DNA of 31,774 nucleotides from a virus (lineage: Duplodnaviria; Heunggongvirae; Uroviricota; Caudoviricetes). The notes below the pieces were generated by a model. That model saw only the letters and a list, made by a program, of their open reading frames with translations. It did not search any database and was not told where the DNA came from. The stretch's first letter is position 1. The number at the start of each line of letters is the position of its first letter. Where the stretch lies: IMG/VR virus record IMGVR_UViG_2579779052_000011; one strand, written 5' to 3'. A program made the position numbers and the translations under genes. This document shows positions 1 to 12,494 of the stretch, piece by piece.

Positions 1-1011
1 TTATAACGTCACTCCGCCTTTTAGTGGATTCAGAGCGACGGCATTTTGCAGATAGTCAGGCGCAAGGTGCGCATAGGCCATCGTCTGCTGAATGCTCGCA
101 TGTCCCAGAATCTGTTGCAGTGCGATTATATTGCCCCCATTCATCATGAAATGGCTTGCGAATGTATGCCGCAGGATGTGGGTTGCCTGATTGGGTGGTA
201 TATCAGGTTTCACTCTGCGTAAAATCCCGCAAAATTTCTCATAATCAACTTTGAATAATTTGGCGCTGGCCTCCTCTTTAACTTTTTTCTCCAGTTCCTC
301 AGAAATCGGCACGGTTCGCTTTTTACCGTTTTTGGTTTTCAGGAAGGTAACCCTGCAATTTGTAATCTGTGCTGGTTTTAGCGTGGCAACTTCCGTCCAT
401 CTTCCTCCGGTGCTCAGACATAAAAGCGCGACAAGTAAGTCATCACCAGCCAAAACATTTAACAGTTTTTCGATTTCTGCTGTTTCCAGGAACGTCATTT
501 CAGGGTTGGCCTCCGCCAGTGGCGGCAGTCCGTGAATTGGGTGTTGCCCGGAAAATTCATCCAATTGAATTAATTTTGTGAACATGCCGGATAATCGGTA
601 CATGTCACGGTTTATCGTTGCGGCACTGATACCATCACGTAGTCGCATGGAACGATAATCCATCAAAGCCCTTTTGCTCATCCTGCTCACTGGTATATCA
701 CCTATGCCGCTGATGGTTTTGAGTAGATGATTAAACTCTTTTGTTCCATGCTCGTGGTTTTGCCCGTGATATTTCCACCAGATGTCCAGCAACTCACTCA
801 AAGTCCGGCGGTCTGCTCGCTGGCCTCCCCATTCGTTCTGACTGGCATTGGCGATTGTGTATCGCTCAAATGCTAGTGCTTCAGCTTTTCTTTCGAATTT
901 CCTGCGGATGCGTTTTCCGTCGCGACCGCGAGGTCTAATGTCCACTTCATAGCGACCATCATCGAGCTTCTTAATTGCCATAAGAAAGCCCTCCGGCGCT
1001 GTATTCACCAT
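1..1011 (-). CDS. int: Tyrosine integrase, P2 Int-like
   Basis: 336-aa ORF with the C-terminal tyrosine-recombinase region (HxLRHTFA...GH...YAH); sits at prophage end next to C. An internal ATG at 981 has a GGAGG RBS and may be the true start. Confidence 0.9.
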   Translation of the reverse strand: MVNTAPEGFLMAIKKLDDGRYEVDIRPRGRDGKRIRRKFERKAEALAFERYTIANASQNEWGGQRADRRTLSELLDIWWKYHGQNHEHGTKEFNHLLKTISGIGDIPVSRMSKRALMDYRSMRLRDGISAATINRDMYRLSGMFTKLIQLDEFSGQHPIHGLPPLAEANPEMTFLETAEIEKLLNVLAGDDLLVALLCLSTGGRWTEVATLKPAQITNCRVTFLKTKNGKKRTVPISEELEKKVKEEASAKLFKVDYEKFCGILRRVKPDIPPNQATHILRHTFASHFMMNGGNIIALQQILGHASIQQTMAYAHLAPDYLQNAVALNPLKGGVTL

Positions 1012-3237: not shown

Positions 3238-3509
3238 GTATTCGTGTTGAAATTGGCGAACGTTATGTCGTTACCAGTGACAGCTTTCAGTTTATTCTCC
3301 ACGAGAAAAAGAGAGCGGAAAGCGGTAAAAACGCCGGTCAGGAATGGCTGGCGGTGGTTGGTTATTACCCGAAATTAGGCCAGCTCGTTTCCGGCCTGAT
3401 GCATCACGATATTCTGACCGGAAGCGCAAAATCTTTTGCTGATTTAAACGCGCAGGTTGAGCAACTCAGCAAGCGTTGTTCAGAGGCTTTTGGCTCATAT
3501 GGCCGTTAA
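3234..3509 (+). CDS. Hypothetical early protein (P2 orf83 position)
   Basis: 91-aa ORF; overlaps the start of A. Confidence 0.6.
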   Translation: MSIRVEIGERYVVTSDSFQFILHEKKRAESGKNAGQEWLAVVGYYPKLGQLVSGLMHHDILTGSAKSFADLNAQVEQLSKRCSEAFGSYGR

Positions 3510-5775
3510 AGCCTCCGGGCGTTTTGTCCCTCCGTCAGCATTTACCGCAGGCACCGGTAAGGCGTTTACCGGTGCTTATGCATGGAACGCGCCACGCGAG
3601 GCTGTCGGGCGCGAAAGACCTCTTACACGTGACGAGATGCGTCAGGTGCAAGGTGTTTTATCCACGATTAACCGCCTGCCTTACTTTTTGCGCTCGCTGT
3701 TTACTTCACGCTATGACTACATCCGGCGCAATAAAAGCCCGGTGCACGGGTTTTATTTCCTCACATCTACTTTTCAGCGTCGTTTATGGCCGCGCATTGA
3801 GCGTGTGAATCAGCGCCATGAAATGAACACCGACGCGTCGTTGCTGTTTCTGGCAGAGCGTGACCACTATGCGCGCCTGCCGGGAATGAATGACAAGGAG
3901 CTGAAAAAGTTTGCCGCCCGTATCTCATCGCAGCTTTTCATGATGTATGAGGAACTCTGCGATGCATGGGTTGATGCGCATGGTGAAAAAGAATCGCTGT
4001 TTACGGATGAGGCGCAGGCTCACCTGTATGGTCATGTTGCTGGCGCTGCACGTGCTTTCAATATTTCCCCGCTCTACTGGAAAAAATACCGTAAAGGACA
4101 GATGACCACGAGGCAGGCATATTCTGCCATTGCCCGCCTGTTTAACGATGAGTGGTGGACTCATCAGCTTAAAGGCCAGCGTATGCGCTGGCATGAGGCG
4201 TTACTGATAGCTGTCGGGGAGGTCAATAAAGACCGTTCTCCTTATGCCAGTAAACACGCCATTCGTGATGTGCGTGCGCGCCGCCAGGCAAATCTGGAAT
4301 TTCTTAAATCGTGTGACCTTGAAAACAGGGAAACCGGCGAGCGCATCGACCTTATCAGTAAGGTGATGGGCAGTATTTCTAATCCTGAAATTCGCCGGAT
4401 GGAGCTGATGAACACCATTGCCGGTATTGAGCGTTACGCCGCCGCAGAGGGTGATGTGGGGATGTTTATCACGCTGACCGCGCCGTCAAAGTATCACCCG
4501 ACACGTCAGGTCGGAAAAGGCGAAAGTAAAACCGTTCAGCTTAATCACGGCTGGAACGATGAGGCATTTAATCCAAAGGATGCGCAGCGTTATCTCTGCC
4601 GTATCTGGAGCCTGATGCGCACGGCATTCAAGGATAATGATTTACAGGTCTACGGTTTGCGAGTCGTCGAGCCACACCACGACGGAACGCCGCACTGGCA
4701 TATGATGCTTTTTTGTCATCCACGCCAGCGTAACCAGATTATCGAAATCATGCGTCGCTATGCGCTCAAAGAGGATGGCGACGAAAGAGGAGCCGCGCGA
4801 AACCGTTTTCAGGCAAAACACCTTAACCGGGGCGGTGCTGCGGGATATATCGCGAAATACATTTCAAAAAACATCGACGGCTATGCACTGGATGGTCAGC
4901 TCGATAACGACACCGGCAGGCCGCTGAAAGACACTGCAGCGGCTGTTACCGCATGGGCGTCAACGTGGCGCATTCCGCAATTTAAAACGGTTGGCCTGCC
5001 GACAATGGGGGCTTACCGTGAACTACGCAAATTGCCTCGCGGCGTCAGCATTGCTGATGAGTTTGACGAGCGCGTCGAGGCTGCACGCGCCGCCGCAGAC
5101 AGTGGTGATTTTGCGCTGTATATCAGCGCGCAGGGCGGGGCAAATGTCCCGCGCGATTGTCAGACTGTCAGGGTCGCCCGTAGTCTGTCGGATGACGTTA
5201 ACGAGTACGAGGAAGAAGTCGAGAGAGTGGTCGGCATTTACGCGCCGCATCTCGGCGCGCGTCATATTCATATCACCAGAACGACGGACTGGCGCATTGT
5301 GCCGAAAGTTCCGGTCGTTGAGCCTTTGACTTTAAAAAGCGGCATCGCCGCGCCTCGGAGTCCTGTCAATAACTGTGGAAAGCTCACCGGTGGTGATACT
5401 TCGTTACCGGCTCCCACACCTTCTGAGCACGCCGCAGCAGTGCTTAATCTGGTTGATGACGATGTTATCGAATGGAATGACCCGGAGGTCGTGAGGGCGC
5501 TCAGGGGCGCATTAAAACACGACCGGAGAACGCCAAACCGTCAGCAAAGAAACGGAAGCCCGTTAAAACCGCATGAAATTGCACCATCGGCCAGACTGAC
5601 CCGGTCGGAACGATTGCAAATTACCCGTATCCGCGTTGATCTCGCTCAGAACGGTATCAGGCCGCAACGATGGGAGCTTGAGGCGCTGGCGCGTGGCGCG
5701 ACCGTAAATTATGACGGGAAACCTTTCACTTATCAGGTCGCTGATGATTGGCCGGGGTTTTTGTTACCCATTTGA
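3499..5775 (+). CDS. A: Rolling-circle replication initiator/endonuclease, P2 gpA-like
   Basis: Large ORF; true start taken as the ATG at 3499 (MAVKASGRF...), which I recognise as the P2 A N-terminus; the listed ORF start at 3457 overlaps the upstream gene. Confidence 0.9.
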   Translation: MAVKASGRFVPPSAFTAGTGKAFTGAYAWNAPREAVGRERPLTRDEMRQVQGVLSTINRLPYFLRSLFTSRYDYIRRNKSPVHGFYFLTSTFQRRLWPRIERVNQRHEMNTDASLLFLAERDHYARLPGMNDKELKKFAARISSQLFMMYEELCDAWVDAHGEKESLFTDEAQAHLYGHVAGAARAFNISPLYWKKYRKGQMTTRQAYSAIARLFNDEWWTHQLKGQRMRWHEALLIAVGEVNKDRSPYASKHAIRDVRARRQANLEFLKSCDLENRETGERIDLISKVMGSISNPEIRRMELMNTIAGIERYAAAEGDVGMFITLTAPSKYHPTRQVGKGESKTVQLNHGWNDEAFNPKDAQRYLCRIWSLMRTAFKDNDLQVYGLRVVEPHHDGTPHWHMMLFCHPRQRNQIIEIMRRYALKEDGDERGAARNRFQAKHLNRGGAAGYIAKYISKNIDGYALDGQLDNDTGRPLKDTAAAVTAWASTWRIPQFKTVGLPTMGAYRELRKLPRGVSIADEFDERVEAARAAADSGDFALYISAQGGANVPRDCQTVRVARSLSDDVNEYEEEVERVVGIYAPHLGARHIHITRTTDWRIVPKVPVVEPLTLKSGIAAPRSPVNNCGKLTGGDTSLPAPTPSEHAAAVLNLVDDDVIEWNDPEVVRALRGALKHDRRTPNRQQRNGSPLKPHEIAPSARLTRSERLQITRIRVDLAQNGIRPQRWELEALARGATVNYDGKPFTYQVADDWPGFLLPI

Positions 5776-5960
5776 GTAAAAATACAGCGTGATTTTATAT
5801 GTCTTTGAATGGATTATGCGAAGCACCTCTAAGGTAGATGAGGAGCAATAGCGTGTTGAATCAGAAGGCTAAATTGTATTGAATCGTTAGCATGTAATTG
5901 AAGGCAGCTATTTGATTCGAGTCATAAAAGAGCATCTATTTCGGTTAATAAAACCATTGC

Positions 5961-6005
5961 GAGTGACTTTATGTCGAAGCATAATTCATCTCGAGCGAAG
6001 TCTTG
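5961..6005. repeat. Direct repeat copy 1 (GAGTGACT...GAGCGAAGTCTTGC)
   Basis: Shares the GAGTGACT start and the 14-bp GAGCGAAGTCTTGC end with 6246-6270, with about 20 extra bp in between. Confidence 0.6.
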
Positions 6006-6037
6006 CTAGTCTTTCATCGGATTGATGACGGGCGCAA

Positions 6038-6069
6038 AAAAACCACCCTGGCAGGTGGTTTTTTTGTTT
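6038..6069. terminator. Bidirectional rho-independent terminator after the early operon
   Basis: AAAAAAA-CCACCCTGGCAGGTGG-TTTTTTT: GC-rich hairpin flanked by an A-tract and a T-tract. Confidence 0.8.
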
Positions 6070-6077
6070 GAAGCATA

Positions 6078-6191
6078 CTAAAGAAAAATACTTACATGGA
6101 TATTACTGACGTTTACTGACAAACCACTCGGACTACCATATGGATAGCCAAAGAGGGCCAGAACGAGAATGCAGTAATAGCACTTCTTCAT
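6078..6191 (-). CDS. Small hydrophobic peptide (37 aa), function unknown
   Basis: ATG with a consensus GGAGG Shine-Dalgarno 5 nt upstream; hand-translated as MKKCYYCILVLALFGYPYGSPSGLSVNVSNIHVSIFL; ends just before the bidirectional terminator. Below the ORF-track size cutoff. Confidence 0.3.
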   Translation of the reverse strand: MKKCYYCILVLALFGYPYGSPSGLSVNVSNIHVSIFL

Positions 6192-6245
6192 ATCGCCTCC
6201 TGTAAGCAGAGGGCAATTTCCGCCGATATATGCGCTTCTAAGGCG

Positions 6246-6270
6246 GAGTGACTATTGAGCGAAGTCTTGC
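6246..6270. repeat. Direct repeat copy 2 (GAGTGACTATTGAGCGAAGTCTTGC)
   Basis: Shares the terminal 14-bp GAGCGAAGTCTTGC and the GAGTGACT start with 5961-6005. Confidence 0.6.
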
Positions 6271-6848
6271 CCTGAAATAATGCTCTGTTTAAACGCAAAG
6301 TGATCTGGCATATCACCGAACAGAGGACCTGAACAACACAACATATAGTATGTCGTTGTTTCTGGTTGCATTTTATGTTGTGTAATACTGGTTTTGCATC
6401 AAGGATGTTTGAGCTTTTTTTGATATAGCTCAAAGTAAAAAGCAGAGACTACGGATGATAAGGTCTTGAAAGCAATGTAAATTTTTTAAAGTTGTGAGTG
6501 GCTAGAAATGCACAGTTTCAATATGGCGGATTTAAACAAGTAATTAAAAATAGCGACATAAATTCCAATAAAATCATTAAGTTGCGTTTTCTGTGGAAAC
6601 TTCGGTGACTCTGAAATTTTCTTTTAGTGTCGCTGAGGTTTAACAACGCGCTGCGCAAGTAGTTAGTGTTTTTTTAACTCAATATTCTGATTTATAAGGT
6701 TTTTTATAAATCGTGGGCTGGTTGCGCGTATTCATCTCGTGTTATCAGCAAAGATAAGCTCTATATGCAGAACGGAATGCATATATGATGTCGAAAATGT
6801 TATGGGAAAACGTGGATTAGTGTTATAGTAATGGCTGAAAAACAGCCT

Positions 6849-6877
6849 TGACATAAAATAACAACTGTGATATGGCT
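6849..6877 (+). promoter_or_regulatory. Putative sigma70 promoter for the cargo peptidase gene
   Basis: TTGACA at 6849-6854, 17-bp spacer, TATGGC -10-like hexamer; TAGGAGG RBS at 6901-6907. Confidence 0.4.
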
Positions 6878-6912
6878 GTGCATACTTAACTTTTTTAACG
6901 TAGGAGGCAACC

Positions 6913-7398
6913 ATGAGCTATGCAGCTAAAAAACTGCTTGACCGCTATTGGGATCGCCGACTACCTGTCGATCCGTTTAAGCTTGCTAAAGCGTGGGGTG
7001 CTCGTGTTGAAGCACTTGAGGAATCGGCTTATAACAACGATGGGTTAAGCGGTCTGGCTGTCATCAAAAAGGGTGTCCATAGGATTTATTTTGATTCTAG
7101 TGAACATTCTAATCGTCAACGTTTTACTGTTGCACACGAGTTAGGTCATCATGTGCTGGGGCATACCCAGGACGGAGAGTACCATCGGGATAATGTCGGG
7201 AATTATTCAACAGGTGCTCGTGATTACCGTGAGGTTGAAGCAAACAAGTTTGCTGCTGAGTTGTTAATGCCTGAGTCTGCTATACGTCAATTGGTATCCA
7301 GAGAAGGTATTGATAGCACTTTGAGATTAGCAAGCATCTTTAATGTATCAGAAGCCGCTATGCATTGGCGCTTAAAGAGCTTAGGAATGGCTTATTAA
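6913..7398 (+). CDS. ImmA/IrrE-family (DUF955) zinc metallopeptidase
   Basis: 161-aa ORF with HEXXH (HELGHH) and the downstream family motif EANKFAAELLMPE; strong RBS; AT-rich. Confidence 0.8.
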   Translation: MSYAAKKLLDRYWDRRLPVDPFKLAKAWGARVEALEESAYNNDGLSGLAVIKKGVHRIYFDSSEHSNRQRFTVAHELGHHVLGHTQDGEYHRDNVGNYSTGARDYREVEANKFAAELLMPESAIRQLVSREGIDSTLRLASIFNVSEAAMHWRLKSLGMAY

Positions 7399-7426: not shown

Positions 7427-7465
7427 ATCACCTTTACGTTTGTACATGTAAGGGTGATTTTTTTA
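7427..7465 (+). terminator. Rho-independent terminator or attenuator after the peptidase gene
   Basis: 10-bp stem (AUCACCUUUA / UAAGGGUGAU, one G-U pair) followed by a run of 7 T; ends at the start codon of the next ORF. Confidence 0.6.
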
Positions 7466-8064
7466 TGGCTGATATTGATTTATCTGGACAGTCCCCAGAG
7501 CAAGGAACCACTCCTAAGGGCGATTTAGATCCTGATATCCTTATAAGGCGAGATAGACGGGATGGTATAGAGCGTAGAAGCATGCGATTAGTGCTCTCTG
7601 CCGTTGTGCTTTGTTTTGCTTGTACATTTCTATGGCAGGGGCTTAACTTTGCTTTGGCTGTTGGAAATGGCTTGCTGGAAGCGAAAAGCAGTATTGCCGC
7701 AGCGATAACACAAAAAGTAGATACACAAACTTGTGTTTCAGCAGAAAAATGTTCTGCTTTATCTTCGGATCCGAAGATGGCTGATGAGAGGATAACACCA
7801 TCTTCAGACACTAATAAAGTTAGAAAATCTATTTCTGGTTTATCCACCGATTGGTTATCGGCCAGTTCTCTAATAGCTATTGTTGCATTCATCCTTGGTG
7901 TGGGTTTAACTTTGCTTTTGACTCTTCTTAAATCAGCATTTCAACACCCGACAGATAAAGACTTTAGAACAAAGTCGACATCTAATACTATTGAGTTGGC
8001 CACGCCAATCAGTGAATTAATAATTGGTGTTCTGAATATAATTAAAGACAAACTATCTAAGTAA
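7465..8064 (+). CDS. Hypothetical membrane protein with two predicted TM helices
   Basis: 199-aa ORF; hydrophobic segments LVLSAVVLCFACTFLW and LIAIVAFILGVGLTLLLTLL; no recognisable RBS; followed by a terminator. Confidence 0.45.
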   Translation: MADIDLSGQSPEQGTTPKGDLDPDILIRRDRRDGIERRSMRLVLSAVVLCFACTFLWQGLNFALAVGNGLLEAKSSIAAAITQKVDTQTCVSAEKCSALSSDPKMADERITPSSDTNKVRKSISGLSTDWLSASSLIAIVAFILGVGLTLLLTLLKSAFQHPTDKDFRTKSTSNTIELATPISELIIGVLNIIKDKLSK

Positions 8065-8106
8065 AGCATTAGTTGTGATTTTTTATTGGTTTTAGTGATA
8101 ATACAT

Positions 8107-8139
8107 CTCCAGTACTTATTGTTACTGGAGAGTATTTTT
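8107..8139 (+). terminator. Rho-independent terminator between convergent cargo genes
   Basis: Perfect 8-bp stem CTCCAGTA...TACTGGAG followed by AGTATTTTTA. Confidence 0.6.
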
Positions 8140-8146
8140 AGTCGTT

Positions 8147-9088
8147 TTATATTTTTAATGTTAGTGAATGATATTCACGAGAGTTCACGTTCGATGTGAT
8201 GTAATCGGGGGCGTTAACACCAAGAATCGCAACGAGTAATCGGCAAATTAAAGCCTGCATTTGTTGTAATATGTCATCTCCATATTGATAATTGTTAATA
8301 GTGGTAAAGCCAAGTGGTTGACCATGAAACATAGCTTCATGAAAGTTTTCATTGCGGATGTTTGTAATGTTTTTTTTGCCTGTAACCCATGATGGTCGTG
8401 GTATTCCATAAGTTTTGCAGATCCACTTCAAGCGCCTGGAGTGATTTAGAGTCTTTTCTGTACACTTGTTCTTTTCTGCCCATGTTAAAGCAAAGCAACT
8501 ATCCAGTGCCATATAAAGATACTGGAATTTTTCGAAGCTAAGGTATTGTGGGTTTTGGGATAAAAATAGTGCATGCACTATTGCTGCTATATTTATTGGT
8601 GCGTGTTTGGTTTTTGTCTCGCTAGACATGTATTTGAGTGCTAATTCTATAACCTCTTTTTCAGAGCACTTGACCAGAATAAAGTCAGTTAATTTGCTAG
8701 GTTTTATTGGGGTTGCGTCTAAAAAACCGGCATCAGTAGTTGTTAATCTTATCCCTTTGAAAAAAGACAGACACCACACAGCAAAATTGAGAGTTTCTAG
8801 TGAAGATGTATTTTTTAATTTTAGTGAGTGTGTTTTGGGTAAGCCAAATACTCGTTGGCTAAAAGGCATTGTGGATATGCCTCCATTGAGGTTATATACT
8901 TCTTGGTTTCCTGGGTATATCCAACCGTTAATAACATTTCTGTGATTGTTTATAAGATTTGTTTTTTCCGCTAGACCGGGTAAAGTAAGTAAAGAAAAAT
9001 CATCAGTTTCAACGTTAACTTCTACTGGATAGTATCCAAACTCAGCTTCAATATCATTGGATTGCTGTTCGTCAACTTTACCTTGCAT
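8147..9088 (-). CDS. Hypothetical 313-aa protein in the old/tin hotspot; possible HEPN-like Rx4H motif; candidate defence effector
   Basis: AT-rich ORF with GGAG RBS 8 nt upstream; occupies the cos-proximal slot where P2 has old; C-terminal IRNENFHEAMFHG motif. Confidence 0.6.
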   Translation of the reverse strand: MQGKVDEQQSNDIEAEFGYYPVEVNVETDDFSLLTLPGLAEKTNLINNHRNVINGWIYPGNQEVYNLNGGISTMPFSQRVFGLPKTHSLKLKNTSSLETLNFAVWCLSFFKGIRLTTTDAGFLDATPIKPSKLTDFILVKCSEKEVIELALKYMSSETKTKHAPINIAAIVHALFLSQNPQYLSFEKFQYLYMALDSCFALTWAEKNKCTEKTLNHSRRLKWICKTYGIPRPSWVTGKKNITNIRNENFHEAMFHGQPLGFTTINNYQYGDDILQQMQALICRLLVAILGVNAPDYITSNVNSREYHSLTLKI

Positions 9089-9200
9089 ACATTGCTCCGG
9101 TCAAAAATAGGCTCGATAATTCTCGTAAGCCTATCATGTTCGCAAAGTATCCATACCTGTGGATTTTGTAAATTTAAGTTGATTTGTCATTAAATAAGCC

Positions 9201-9212
9201 GTTGCATGCAAC
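9201..9212. repeat. Perfect 12-bp palindrome GTTGCATGCAAC upstream of the 313-aa gene
   Basis: Direct reading; lies in the promoter region of the minus-strand cargo gene. Confidence 0.5.
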
Positions 9213-9326
9213 AAGTGAATGTTTTTGCATGCGTCGGGGATGTCCGTTCAGGCTGCGTGCGGTCAGGACTGGTGCGGATCCATAGTATCTATGCAACTGC
9301 ATTAAAACTGCCCCATGAAGCGGGCG

Positions 9327-9345
9327 GGCGAGGCGGGGAAAGCAC
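9327..9345. other. cos: cos site (19-nt cohesive end GGCGAGGCGGGGAAAGCAC)
   Basis: Exact match to the P2 cohesive-end sequence as I recall it; located immediately upstream of Q as in P2. Confidence 0.8.
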
Positions 9346-9514: not shown

Positions 9515-10549
9515 TCAGCCGTTGTCAGTGTCCAGTGAGTAGTTTTTAAAGCGGATGACCTCCTGGCCGAGCCAGCCGTTTATTTCCCGAATCCTGTCCT
9601 GTAACGGGATAAGTTCATTGCGGACAAAGACCTTTGCCACTTTCTCAATATCACCCAGCGACCCGACGTTCTCCGGCTTGCCGCCCATCAACTGAAAGGG
9701 GATGCGGTGCGCGTCCAGCAGGTCAGCGGCGCTGGCTTTTTTGATATTAAAAAAATCGTCCTTCGTTGCCACTTCACTGAGCGGGATAATTTTAATACCG
9801 TCGGCTTTCCCCTGCGGGGCATAGAGAAACAGATTTTTAAAGTTGTTGCGGCCTTTCGACTTGACCATGTTTTCGCGAAGCATTTCGATATCGTTGCGAT
9901 CCTGCACGGCATCAGTGACGTACATGATGTATCCGGCATGTGCGCCATTTTCGTAATACTTGCGGCGGAACAGCGTGGCCGACTCATTCAGCCAGGCAGA
10001 GTTAAGGGCGCTGAGATATTCCGGCAGGCCGTACAGCTCCTGATTAATATCCGGCTCCAGCAGGTGAAACACGGAGCCGGGCGCGAAGGCTGTCGGCTCG
10101 TTGAAGGACGGCGCCCACCAGTAAACATCCTCTTCCACACCACGGCGGGGATATTTTGCCGGTGAGGTTTCCAGTCTGATGACCTTACCGGTGGTGCTGT
10201 AACGCTTTTCCAGAAACGCATTACCGAACACCAGAAAATCCAGCACAAAGCGGCTGAAATCCTGCTGGGAAAGCCACGGATGCGGGATAAATGTTGAGGC
10301 CAGAATATTACGTTTGACGTAAATCGGTGAGCTGTGATGCACGGCAGCACGCAGGCTTTTTGCCAGACCGGTAAAGCTGACCGGTGGTTCATACCATCTG
10401 CCGTTACTGATGCACTCGACGTAATCCAGAATGTCACGGCGGTCGAGTACCGGTACCGGCTCGCCAAAGGTGAATGCCTCCATTTTCGGGGTGCTGGCGG
10501 TCATTTTTTTTGCCGCAGGTTGCGGTGTTTTCCCTTTTTTCTTGCTCAT
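9515..10549 (-). CDS. Q: Portal protein, P2 gpQ-like
   Basis: 344-aa ORF, same length as P2 Q; N-terminal lysine-rich region; adjacent to cos. Confidence 0.9.
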   Translation of the reverse strand: MSKKKGKTPQPAAKKMTASTPKMEAFTFGEPVPVLDRRDILDYVECISNGRWYEPPVSFTGLAKSLRAAVHHSSPIYVKRNILASTFIPHPWLSQQDFSRFVLDFLVFGNAFLEKRYSTTGKVIRLETSPAKYPRRGVEEDVYWWAPSFNEPTAFAPGSVFHLLEPDINQELYGLPEYLSALNSAWLNESATLFRRKYYENGAHAGYIMYVTDAVQDRNDIEMLRENMVKSKGRNNFKNLFLYAPQGKADGIKIIPLSEVATKDDFFNIKKASAADLLDAHRIPFQLMGGKPENVGSLGDIEKVAKVFVRNELIPLQDRIREINGWLGQEVIRFKNYSLDTDNG

Positions 10550-12321
10550 CAGTAAAACTCCAGAATGGTGGATGTCAGCGGAGTGCTGATACCCGCGGTG
10601 AGTGGCTCATTTAACAGGGCGTGCATGGTCGCCCAGGCGAGGTCGGCGTGGCTGGCTTCCTCGCTGCGGCTGGCCTCATAGGTGGCGCTGCGTCCGCTGC
10701 TGGTCATGGTCTTGCGGATAGCCATAAACGAGCTGGTGATGTCGGTGGCGCTGACGTCATATTCCAGACAGCCACGGCGAATAACGTCTTTTGCCTTGAG
10801 CACCATTGCGGTTTTCATTTCCGGCGTGTAGCGGATATCGCGCGCGGCGGGATAGAACGAGCGAACGAGCTGGAACACGCCGACACCGAGGCCGGTGGCA
10901 TCAATTCCGATGTATTCGACGTTGTATTTTTCGGTGAGTTTGCGGATGGATTCAGCCTGGGTGGCAAAGTCCATGCCTTTCCACTGGTGACGCTCAAGTA
11001 TTCTGAATTTGCCACCGGCCACCACCGGCGGTGCCAGCACCACGCATCCGGCACTGTCGCCACGGTGTGACGGGTCGTAACCAATCCAGACCGGGCGGGA
11101 GCCGAACGGATTGGCGGCAAACGGCGCATAGTCTTCCCATTCTTCCAGCGTGTCGACCATGCAGCGTTGCAGCTCCTCGAACGGGAATACCGACGCCTTG
11201 TCGTCAACAAATTCACACATGAACAGGTTTTTAAAATCGTCGGCGCTGTTTTCGCGTTTAAGCTGCTCAATGTCGAACAGCGTGCAGCCACCTTTCAGGG
11301 CGTCCTCAATGGTGACAATCTGCCGCCACTGGCCGTCCGCACAGAGAAACCCACCGGCAAGGGCGTTATGACTGACGTCGATTTCCACGCGTTCGGCGGC
11401 GCTGGCGCGTCCCCGGTTGAACAGTTCACCCGACCAGAACGGGTAGGCGTCGTGCGCCAGCGTGGACGGGGTGGAGAAATAGGTCGAGCGCAGGTGACTC
11501 TGTGAGGCCATACCTGATGCCACCTTACGCAGTACCTGAAAATTCGGGATCCAGAAAATCTCGTCGACGTACAGGTCGCCGTTATGGCTCTGTGCGGTGT
11601 TGGAGTTGGTGCCGAGAAAAATCAGTTTTGCGCCGTTATTGCCCAGGACAATCGGGTCACCGGTCAGGTCAACGTCAACCAGACGGGCAAAGGCGATGAT
11701 GTATTCGCGGAACACATACGCCTGCGTTTTACTGGCCGACAGAAAAATCTGGTTATGACCGGTTTTCAGGGCGCGCAGCAGCGCCTCGCGGGAAAAATAA
11801 AACGTCGCGCCAATCTGGCGGGATTTCAGGATATCGCGGATGCGGTGCTCAAGCCCGGCGCGATACCAGTGCAACTGATATTCGAAAGACTGCTCAAAGA
11901 AAATCTGCTCCAGCTTTTCGATGGCCTCGTCGCTGAAAAAATTCTTTTTCGGTTTGCGTCGCCCGCCTTTGTTGCGGTTAGCGACGTTCGGATTAAGGTC
12001 TGCCTCGTTGCCGGTCTGACTGTAGCGGTTTACCCGTGCCAGTCGTTCAATCTGGCGTCCCAGCAGGTCAATTTCCTTGAAGTCACCGCCGGTTTTCTGC
12101 GGTTTGATGATGAGCTGGGTCAGTCGCGCTTCCAGACTCATTTCGACACGGCTGATGGGGGCAACGCTGTCCCAGCCGTCGCGCTGTTTCCAGCTCTGCA
12201 CCGTCGGACGTTTCATCTGCAACATGGCGGCAATCTGCGGCACGGAAAACCCCTGCCAGTACAGCAGCGCCGCCTGACGACGCGGGTCGTGTAAAAGAGT
12301 GGTGTCTGTGGTGATGGTCAT
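10549..12321 (-). CDS. P: Terminase large (ATPase) subunit, P2 gpP-like
   Basis: Start taken at the internal ATG at 12321 (MTITTD..., GAGG RBS), giving 590 aa; stop overlaps the Q start. Confidence 0.9.
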   Translation of the reverse strand: MTITTDTTLLHDPRRQAALLYWQGFSVPQIAAMLQMKRPTVQSWKQRDGWDSVAPISRVEMSLEARLTQLIIKPQKTGGDFKEIDLLGRQIERLARVNRYSQTGNEADLNPNVANRNKGGRRKPKKNFFSDEAIEKLEQIFFEQSFEYQLHWYRAGLEHRIRDILKSRQIGATFYFSREALLRALKTGHNQIFLSASKTQAYVFREYIIAFARLVDVDLTGDPIVLGNNGAKLIFLGTNSNTAQSHNGDLYVDEIFWIPNFQVLRKVASGMASQSHLRSTYFSTPSTLAHDAYPFWSGELFNRGRASAAERVEIDVSHNALAGGFLCADGQWRQIVTIEDALKGGCTLFDIEQLKRENSADDFKNLFMCEFVDDKASVFPFEELQRCMVDTLEEWEDYAPFAANPFGSRPVWIGYDPSHRGDSAGCVVLAPPVVAGGKFRILERHQWKGMDFATQAESIRKLTEKYNVEYIGIDATGLGVGVFQLVRSFYPAARDIRYTPEMKTAMVLKAKDVIRRGCLEYDVSATDITSSFMAIRKTMTSSGRSATYEASRSEEASHADLAWATMHALLNEPLTAGISTPLTSTILEFY

Positions 12322-12494
12322 GAATACCTCGCCGTGATGAATACACGGCAAGGCTACTGAGTCGCGCCCCGCGATTCGCTAAGGTGCTGTTGTGTCAGTG
12401 ATAAGCCATCCGGGACTGATGGCGGAGGATGCGCATCGTCGGGAAACTGATGCCGACATGTGACTCCTCTAATCACTATTCAGGACTCCTGACA
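12322..12494. promoter_or_regulatory. Divergent late promoter region between P and O (Ogr-dependent in P2)
   Basis: Intergenic region between divergently transcribed P and O; no motif confirmed. Confidence 0.5.

Follow-up and report, generated by a model that had tools for sequence, protein, structure and literature searches.

We describe ORF313, a gene in a 31,774-nt stretch of DNA from a P2-like (Peduoviridae) phage or prophage (IMG/VR record IMGVR_UViG_2579779052_000011), which is referred to as the window. The gene encodes a protein of 313 amino acids (aa) from an ATG start and lies on the minus strand at 8147..9088, exactly where an earlier note on this DNA and the list of open reading frames (ORFs) place it. 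The same gene corresponds to phrog_5937, to ORF313 of P2-EC67 and to system 11 of Rousset et al. We interpret its product, with a probability of about 0.68, as a stand-alone, single-protein anti-phage effector of the abortive infection or exclusion type, in which an N-terminal sensor is joined to a C-terminal HEPN ribonuclease (RNase), and which is carried as cargo of the P2 hotspot.

The scenario we propose is that ORF313 would be kept inactive in uninfected lysogens, and that its N-terminal α/β domain, through a cluster of polar residues (R79, T86, H87, R114, D124 and D135), would sense either a phage protein or a small ligand derived from nucleic acid. Sensing would turn on RNA cleavage by the C-terminal domain, which would be a metal-independent HEPN RNase that dimerises into a composite active site. 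The likeliest targets would be tRNA anticodon loops, by analogy with three single-protein HEPN defences, HepS, ApeA and DARNA, and cleavage would then halt translation so that the infecting phage is aborted.

Conserved motif and predicted fold

HEPN domains characteristically form dimers with a composite active site, and act as metal-independent RNases that leave a 2',3'-cyclic phosphate. The C-terminal IRNENFH motif picked out in the earlier note is present at residues 244-250 and is the sole Rx4-6H in ORF313. The predicted catalytic Rx4H motif within it, R245-N-E-N-F-H250, occupies 8339..8356 on the minus strand, where nt 8354-8356 encode R245 and nt 8339-8341 encode H250. The earlier caution that so short a match may be due to chance was justified: a single Rx4-6H occurs in 50% of shuffled versions of ORF313 (and RNx3H in 1.9%), so that the motif is not significant in one sequence. 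Its weight derives instead from its near-invariance across the family. Among 93 full-length homologs, with identities down to 24%, G112, E186, H250, G260 and R283 are invariant, and in the C-terminal half R245 is conserved in 99%, N246 and E251 each in 94%, and H216 and R219 in 96%. R-N-x3-H-E thus reads, from the aligned sequences, as a family signature of canonical HEPN form. A census of HEPN families reports that the residue following the arginine of Rx4-6H is polar, mostly N, D or H, and that a conserved acidic residue is usually present in helix 2, typically as Ex3[KR] (PMC3710099). The conserved R245-N246-x3-H250 has such a polar residue, and the acidic E186 (codon at 8531..8533, minus strand), which is 100% conserved, stands at the start of helix 2.

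A structural model of good confidence was built with AlphaFold2 on a 42-sequence alignment, with a predicted local distance difference test score (pLDDT) of 82.8 and a predicted template modelling score (pTM) of 0.84. It divides into an N-terminal α/β domain, the putative sensor (residues ~1-140; 8669..9088, minus strand), whose modelled fold covers residues ~10-140, with conserved W56, R79, T86-H87, G112, R114, D124 and D135, and a C-terminal HEPN-like helical domain (residues ~160-297; 8198..8611, minus strand). The modelled C-terminal helices are H1 (163-176), H2 (184-206), an insert helix (216-227), H3 (241-254) and H4 (273-288); E186 opens H2, the conserved H216 opens the insert helix, and a loop separates H3 from H4. 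The census describes a four-helix up-down bundle in which an H2-H3 insert is common and the motif ends H3 (PMC3710099). The order H1-H2-insert-H3(motif)-H4 of the predicted structure agrees with this description: the model contains the four-helix bundle, and the nearest solved relatives of that modelled bundle are HEPN domains. Judged from the model, the C-terminal domain very probably has a HEPN fold; that it has catalytic RNase activity is argued by analogy and is reasonably probable.

Several results weigh against this interpretation. The ORF313 protein has no match in Pfam, PADLOC or NCBIfam, and the homologs give nothing relevant in PADLOC or NCBIfam. When the homologs (42+93) were searched singly against Pfam, only HEPN_RiboL-PSP (E=0.074) and HEPN_Apea (E=0.15) appeared, both at the level of noise. 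A Foldseek search against the PDB returned nothing at E<=0.001. An hhalign comparison of the ORF313 family with a reference HEPN profile, that of the HEPN_MAE_28990/RiboL-PSP family with a Vibrio seed from Rousset Table S6, gave a probability of 0.2% and left the motifs unaligned. Sequence profile searches of the PDB found no HEPN chain, and no significant profile match to an established HEPN family was obtained. Position +4 from E186 is Y190 rather than K or R, so that the usual Ex3[KR] is not formed. Signature strings of the family are not found in the tables of tested systems of Rousset 2022, and substrate, trigger and oligomeric state alike are proposed purely by analogy. The HEPN-like reading of the earlier note therefore holds for the near-invariant motif and for the HEPN-like bundle of the predicted structure, and finds no HEPN match above noise in Pfam, PADLOC or hhalign. 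The PDB profile searches also gave weak, local matches to the N-terminus of RNR R2 and to a bacterial RyR domain, which we regard as chance or unsupported.

The N-terminal α/β domain has no relative among solved structures, and its conservation invites a different assignment of functions. Here ORF313 would still be a defence or exclusion effector, but a new enzyme whose real active site would be the polar cluster R79, T86-H87, R114, D124 and D135, and its C-terminal bundle would serve for oligomerisation or nucleic-acid binding. Conservation in this half is similar to that of the Rx4H motif itself (H87 in 99%, T86 in 97%, D135 in 96% and G112 in 100% of the 93 homologs, together with W56 in 98%, R114 in 92% and R79 in 90%), all sequence-level tests of HEPN membership failed, and some HEPN domains are non-catalytic binding modules (PMC3710099). 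Such non-catalytic domains, however, typically lose Rx4-6H (PMC3710099), whereas the arginine, asparagine, histidine and helix-2 glutamate are essentially invariant in the ORF313 family, as expected of a catalytic HEPN, and the N-terminal conservation is equally well explained by a sensor pocket comparable to the ligand pocket of ApeA. We consider an N-terminal enzyme unlikely.

If the N-terminal domain is a sensor for a C-terminal HEPN RNase, as we prefer, a bolder and more tentative proposal is that it represents an undescribed infection-sensing module, which binds a new kind of trigger and allosterically licenses a highly divergent HEPN RNase, and that ORF313 is the founder of a new single-protein immune family. 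The new trigger may be a small nucleic-acid breakdown product or a phage protein relevant to P2/P4. For our main interpretation, both the predicted catalytic residues (R245, H250 and E186) and the candidate residues of the sensor can be named, so that it is open to direct testing.

Known defence systems and the ORF313 family

Three recently characterised single-protein HEPN defences, tRNases encoded in prophages or islands, provide the closest points of comparison. HepS is an abortive-infection tRNase of the Gifsy-1 prophage (PMC13043305, PDB 9oik); it is a single HEPN-domain protein with a chain of 218 residues that forms tetramers and is triggered by the siphovirus tail-tip protein J (PMC13043305). 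ORF313, at 313 aa, differs in its added 140-residue α/β N-terminal domain, and there is no detectable sequence similarity between the two. ApeA resembles ORF313 in that a single protein combines a C-terminal HEPN containing an insert with a conserved ligand pocket apart from it, but is ~580 aa long and mostly helical, with N, Mid and split-HEPN domains, assembles into decamers or dodecamers, and is triggered by a deoxydinucleotide (bioRxiv 10.64898/2026.01.26.701840). ORF313 and 134 homologs show no match to PF18739 or any PADLOC model (the best, E=0.15, coming from one member). Identity with ApeA was rejected on this absence of a PF18739 or PADLOC ApeA match and on the 313-aa length with an α/β N-terminal domain, as opposed to the ~580-aa helical architecture.

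DARNA is likewise a single-protein HEPN nuclease of tRNA anticodons with a fused sensor domain and its own native promoter. Its HEPN domain is N-terminal (residues 1-159), followed by a C-terminal Pds5-like helical sensor of single-stranded DNA; the protein is 456 aa long, forms a dodecamer, and is triggered by single-stranded DNA bound to SSB, the phage protein that binds single-stranded DNA (bioRxiv 10.64898/2026.02.22.705581). ORF313 was not identified with DARNA, given that the domain order is opposite, the sensor fold differs and there is no PADLOC match. Because sizes, domain order and folds differ and no models match, we place ORF313 outside HepS, ApeA and DARNA. If our interpretation is correct, it adds a new sensor-plus-HEPN architecture beside these three, whose triggers are proving very diverse.

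P2 Old is the counterpart by position, occupying the same cos-proximal slot as a stand-alone prophage exclusion gene. The earlier note had judged ORF313 to be unrelated to Old and about half its size, and both points agree with what we find: Old (~586 aa) consists of an ABC-ATPase and a TOPRIM nuclease, neither of which gives a signal in ORF313 (Pfam, PADLOC), such that genomic position alone is shared. Compared with the HEPN/MNT pair HepT-MntA, ORF313 is without an adjacent MNT and has an additional N-terminal domain as well as a further helix between H2 and H3; no adjacent MNT nucleotidyltransferase gene, the mark of HEPN/MNT type II/VII systems, was seen in the contexts examined. DUF4209 ('Putative HEPN', pFR103) and Rst_3HP were excluded on architecture or sequence.

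The only family match of ORF313 is to phrog_5937 in PHROGs (E=3e-205), for which no function is annotated. Salmonella phage MET_P1_103_31 encodes an identical hypothetical protein, several P2-like phages of E. coli and Yersinia encode hypothetical proteins with 69-74% identity to it, and the protein called 'ORF313' in P2-EC67 is the same protein at 74% identity. The family, of proteins of ~315 aa from Gammaproteobacteria, is large: grouping at 90% identity gives 603 clusters, and a cut-off of 50% leaves 663 representatives. Nearly all members are between 290 and 330 aa, and the main hosts are Enterobacteriaceae, Aeromonas, Pseudomonas, Acinetobacter, Providencia and Stenotrophomonas. Unusually long homologs were scanned for domain swaps, and they contain no Pfam domains. 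The exact protein is encoded on at least 1,000 public contigs, many from Salmonella Infantis and E. coli, and sources naming it use 'hypothetical' or 'uncharacterized' throughout; for one Acinetobacter homolog, UniRef gives the automatic name 'Apea-like HEPN domain-containing protein'.

Of 5,426 complete E. coli genomes, 99 (~2%) contain ORF313, on the chromosome in every case, and the alleles fall into two groups by DNA identity, 47 at ≥99% and 52 at 60-80%. In Table S5B of Rousset 2022, P2-hotspot system 11 is ORF313 with one residue changed, recorded as a single gene without a domain and with 218 occurrences. The signature strings of the family are also absent from the DefensePredictor supplements, and the family, with its divergent HEPN and its N-terminal domain, is undescribed in the databases and literature searched. 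The kind of system, a single-protein HEPN abortive-infection effector in a prophage hotspot, is already known, and ORF313 is accordingly a strong and well-specified candidate rather than a conceptual surprise. If the interpretation holds, a gene found in ~2% of complete E. coli genomes moves from "hypothetical" to a defined immune function, and the P2 hotspot gains an assignment for one of its commonest unannotated entries. Since none of the Pfam, PADLOC and NCBIfam models searched detects the family, genome-wide inventories of defence that rely on models of this kind would underestimate it.

Locus, neighbouring genes and the cassette

ORF313 is the final cargo gene ahead of cos and lies inside the gpA-gpQ interval, which in P2 is a defence hotspot holding old and tin (Rousset et al. 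2022); the earlier assignment to the cos-adjacent old position is therefore correct. A cohesive end of 19 nt, GGCGAGGCGGGGAAAGCAC, occupies 9327-9345. It is there that linear phage records start and stop, and the string is present too in P4 sequences (Rousset Table S2). An integrase ORF (1-1011, minus strand) begins the window, and replication gene A (3457-5775, plus strand) precedes the low-GC cargo region that leads to cos. Beyond cos are portal gene Q (9515-10549, minus strand) and then terminase gene P (10549-12351, minus strand).

Related genes elsewhere are repeatedly found amid known defence genes. In Providencia one and the same protein is encoded in two different islands, one organized as integrase...DUF3800-[gene]-AbiH-TIR and the other as HsdM-HsdS-HsdR-GmrSD-[gene], with type I restriction-modification genes. 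The P. aeruginosa homolog is in an island with ParB, DUF932, and a Gabija-like pair of an OLD-TOPRIM ATPase and a UvrD helicase, and the Acinetobacter homolog is directly downstream of a gene for a DUF4238 protein, a domain family validated as P2-hotspot defence (Rousset et al.). The P. viridiflava homolog adjoins resolvase and integrase genes, that of Aeromonas is inserted alone, and that of Stenotrophomonas is cargo of a Tn7-like element. In that cargo, upstream of the homolog, are genes for an NCAB2-domain protein of 1,495 aa and for two proteins of ~570-595 aa that lack annotation, which may constitute another uncharacterised defence-type operon. These defence hotspots and islands are sampled contexts rather than a statistical test of enrichment, and a role for ORF313 in defence is, we think, likely.

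The P2 hotspot also holds non-defence cargo, including partition systems and a cytolethal distending toxin (Rousset et al.), and ORF313 could be of this kind. The public annotations examined are all 'hypothetical' bar the one HEPN-related UniRef name, and the structural search of the PDB was empty. With the island settings just described in view, we hold this to be quite improbable.

Another alternative is a role in addiction, in which ORF313, instead of being a phage-sensing immune protein, would be the toxin in a prophage-stabilising toxin-antitoxin module, and a small unannotated antitoxin, either peptide or RNA, would be encoded by the leader or by the other strand. No conserved partner gene, MNT or other, was seen in ~15 contexts examined (phage, E. 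coli, Pseudomonas, Aeromonas, Acinetobacter, Providencia and Stenotrophomonas), and the leader is only ~70 nt and without an ORF. The protein, with 313 aa and an extra domain, is unlike minimal HEPN toxins of ~130-140 aa, and the neighbours of the family are defence genes, not plasmid-maintenance genes. We give this explanation very little credence.

ORF313 makes up a one-gene cassette that is self-contained, low in GC and horizontally mobile. Its GC content is 36.5%, compared with 52-57% for the backbone. P2-like and 186-like prophages carry divergent alleles in the same slot and on the same strand, and the co-cargo differs among them (ORF226/ORF73, DUF2158, DUF3850 plus IS2, DinI-like, or an extra 334-aa gene). 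In 186-like prophages with ORF313, an extra hypothetical gene of ~334 aa lies on the cos side of the ORF313 cassette, before the portal gene. Allele identity across 8147-9330 of the window falls smoothly from 100% at cos to ~84% at the 5' end of the ORF and ~57% at its 3' end, and is random past the stop codon, beyond ~8130, the distal boundary of the cassette. The gradient suggests gene conversion starting in the cos backbone and eroding into the cargo, with the distal junction just after ORF313. A bidirectional terminator-like hairpin from a terminator scan (8106..8131) lies at this distal boundary, between ORF313 and a convergent gene for a protein with two transmembrane (TM) helices.

At the other end of the gene, a consensus scan only gives a sigma-70-like promoter candidate, ATGACA-16-CAAAAT (9163..9190, minus strand), within the cassette; this region is cassette-specific and is kept among ORF313 alleles. 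The 5' leader contains a hairpin followed by U5, just upstream of a GGAG ribosome-binding site (9103..9134, minus strand), and the folded 86-nt region has an energy of -23.5 kcal/mol (z=-3.7). The divergent alleles of 613R3 and P2-EC67 keep a hairpin with other stem sequences. The hairpin could dampen the expression of a toxic gene, or shield the gene against read-through from the late Q-P transcript.

Two other cargo genes of the window are an ImmA/IrrE M78 metallopeptidase gene (6913-7398, plus strand; Pfam E=4e-21, PADLOC capP E=1e-30) and the convergent 2-TM gene (7465-8064, plus strand), whose 199-aa product (phrog_8096) is predicted to have two TM helices. The pair of M78 peptidase and 2-TM protein is a separate P2-hotspot system, system 21, with 148 loci (Rousset 2022), for which we found no record of a test; no helix-turn-helix partner gene is visible beside the peptidase. 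A three-gene system of ORF313, peptidase and 2-TM protein was rejected, as the neighbours vary among alleles and Rousset lists system 21 separately. A 152-aa ORF at 7434-7892 (minus strand), wholly antisense to the 2-TM gene, is probably spurious (its best Pfam value, E=0.22, is noise). The ~1.1 kb between gene A and the peptidase (5776-6912) has a GC content of 35-47% and contains no convincing ORF. No Rfam model reached its gathering score in the hotspot; in 5776-6912 an RNAI-like match reached a sub-threshold 27.8 bits against a gathering score of 47. E. coli CUWW10 has a homologous 3.6-kb region with an ISVsa5 insertion.

The palindrome by cos

A 12-bp perfect palindrome, GTTGCATGCAAC, is present at 9201..9212, as the earlier note reported. 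Its suggested place in the promoter region of ORF313 is not supported, because the core TGCATGCA is kept in P2-like phages without ORF313. In an alignment of the cos-proximal region of five phages carrying ORF313 and three P2-like phages without the gene, homology breaks at ~9197-9200, directly on the gene side of the palindrome, and the core is retained in SW9 and RCIP0057, both of which lack ORF313. As the core is kept without the gene and lies on the cos side of the junction, the palindrome is assigned to the cos-proximal backbone and not to the ORF313 cassette. An operator of ORF313 is rejected, the sequence being part of a cos backbone common to phages without the gene. Palindromes of this length are not statistically unusual in the window, with four 12-bp perfect palindromes observed and ~7.8 expected.

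The core is one of three TGCATG repeats. These extend over 9201-9240 and consist of GTTGCATGCAAC, a degenerate GTGAATG (GTGCATG in other phages), and then TTTGCATGCGT. The repeats by cos are conserved in P2-like phages that carry unrelated cargo, and the cos-proximal sequence of P4 shows a similar TTTGCATGCG element. A role of the palindrome and TGCATG element in packaging would be our guess.
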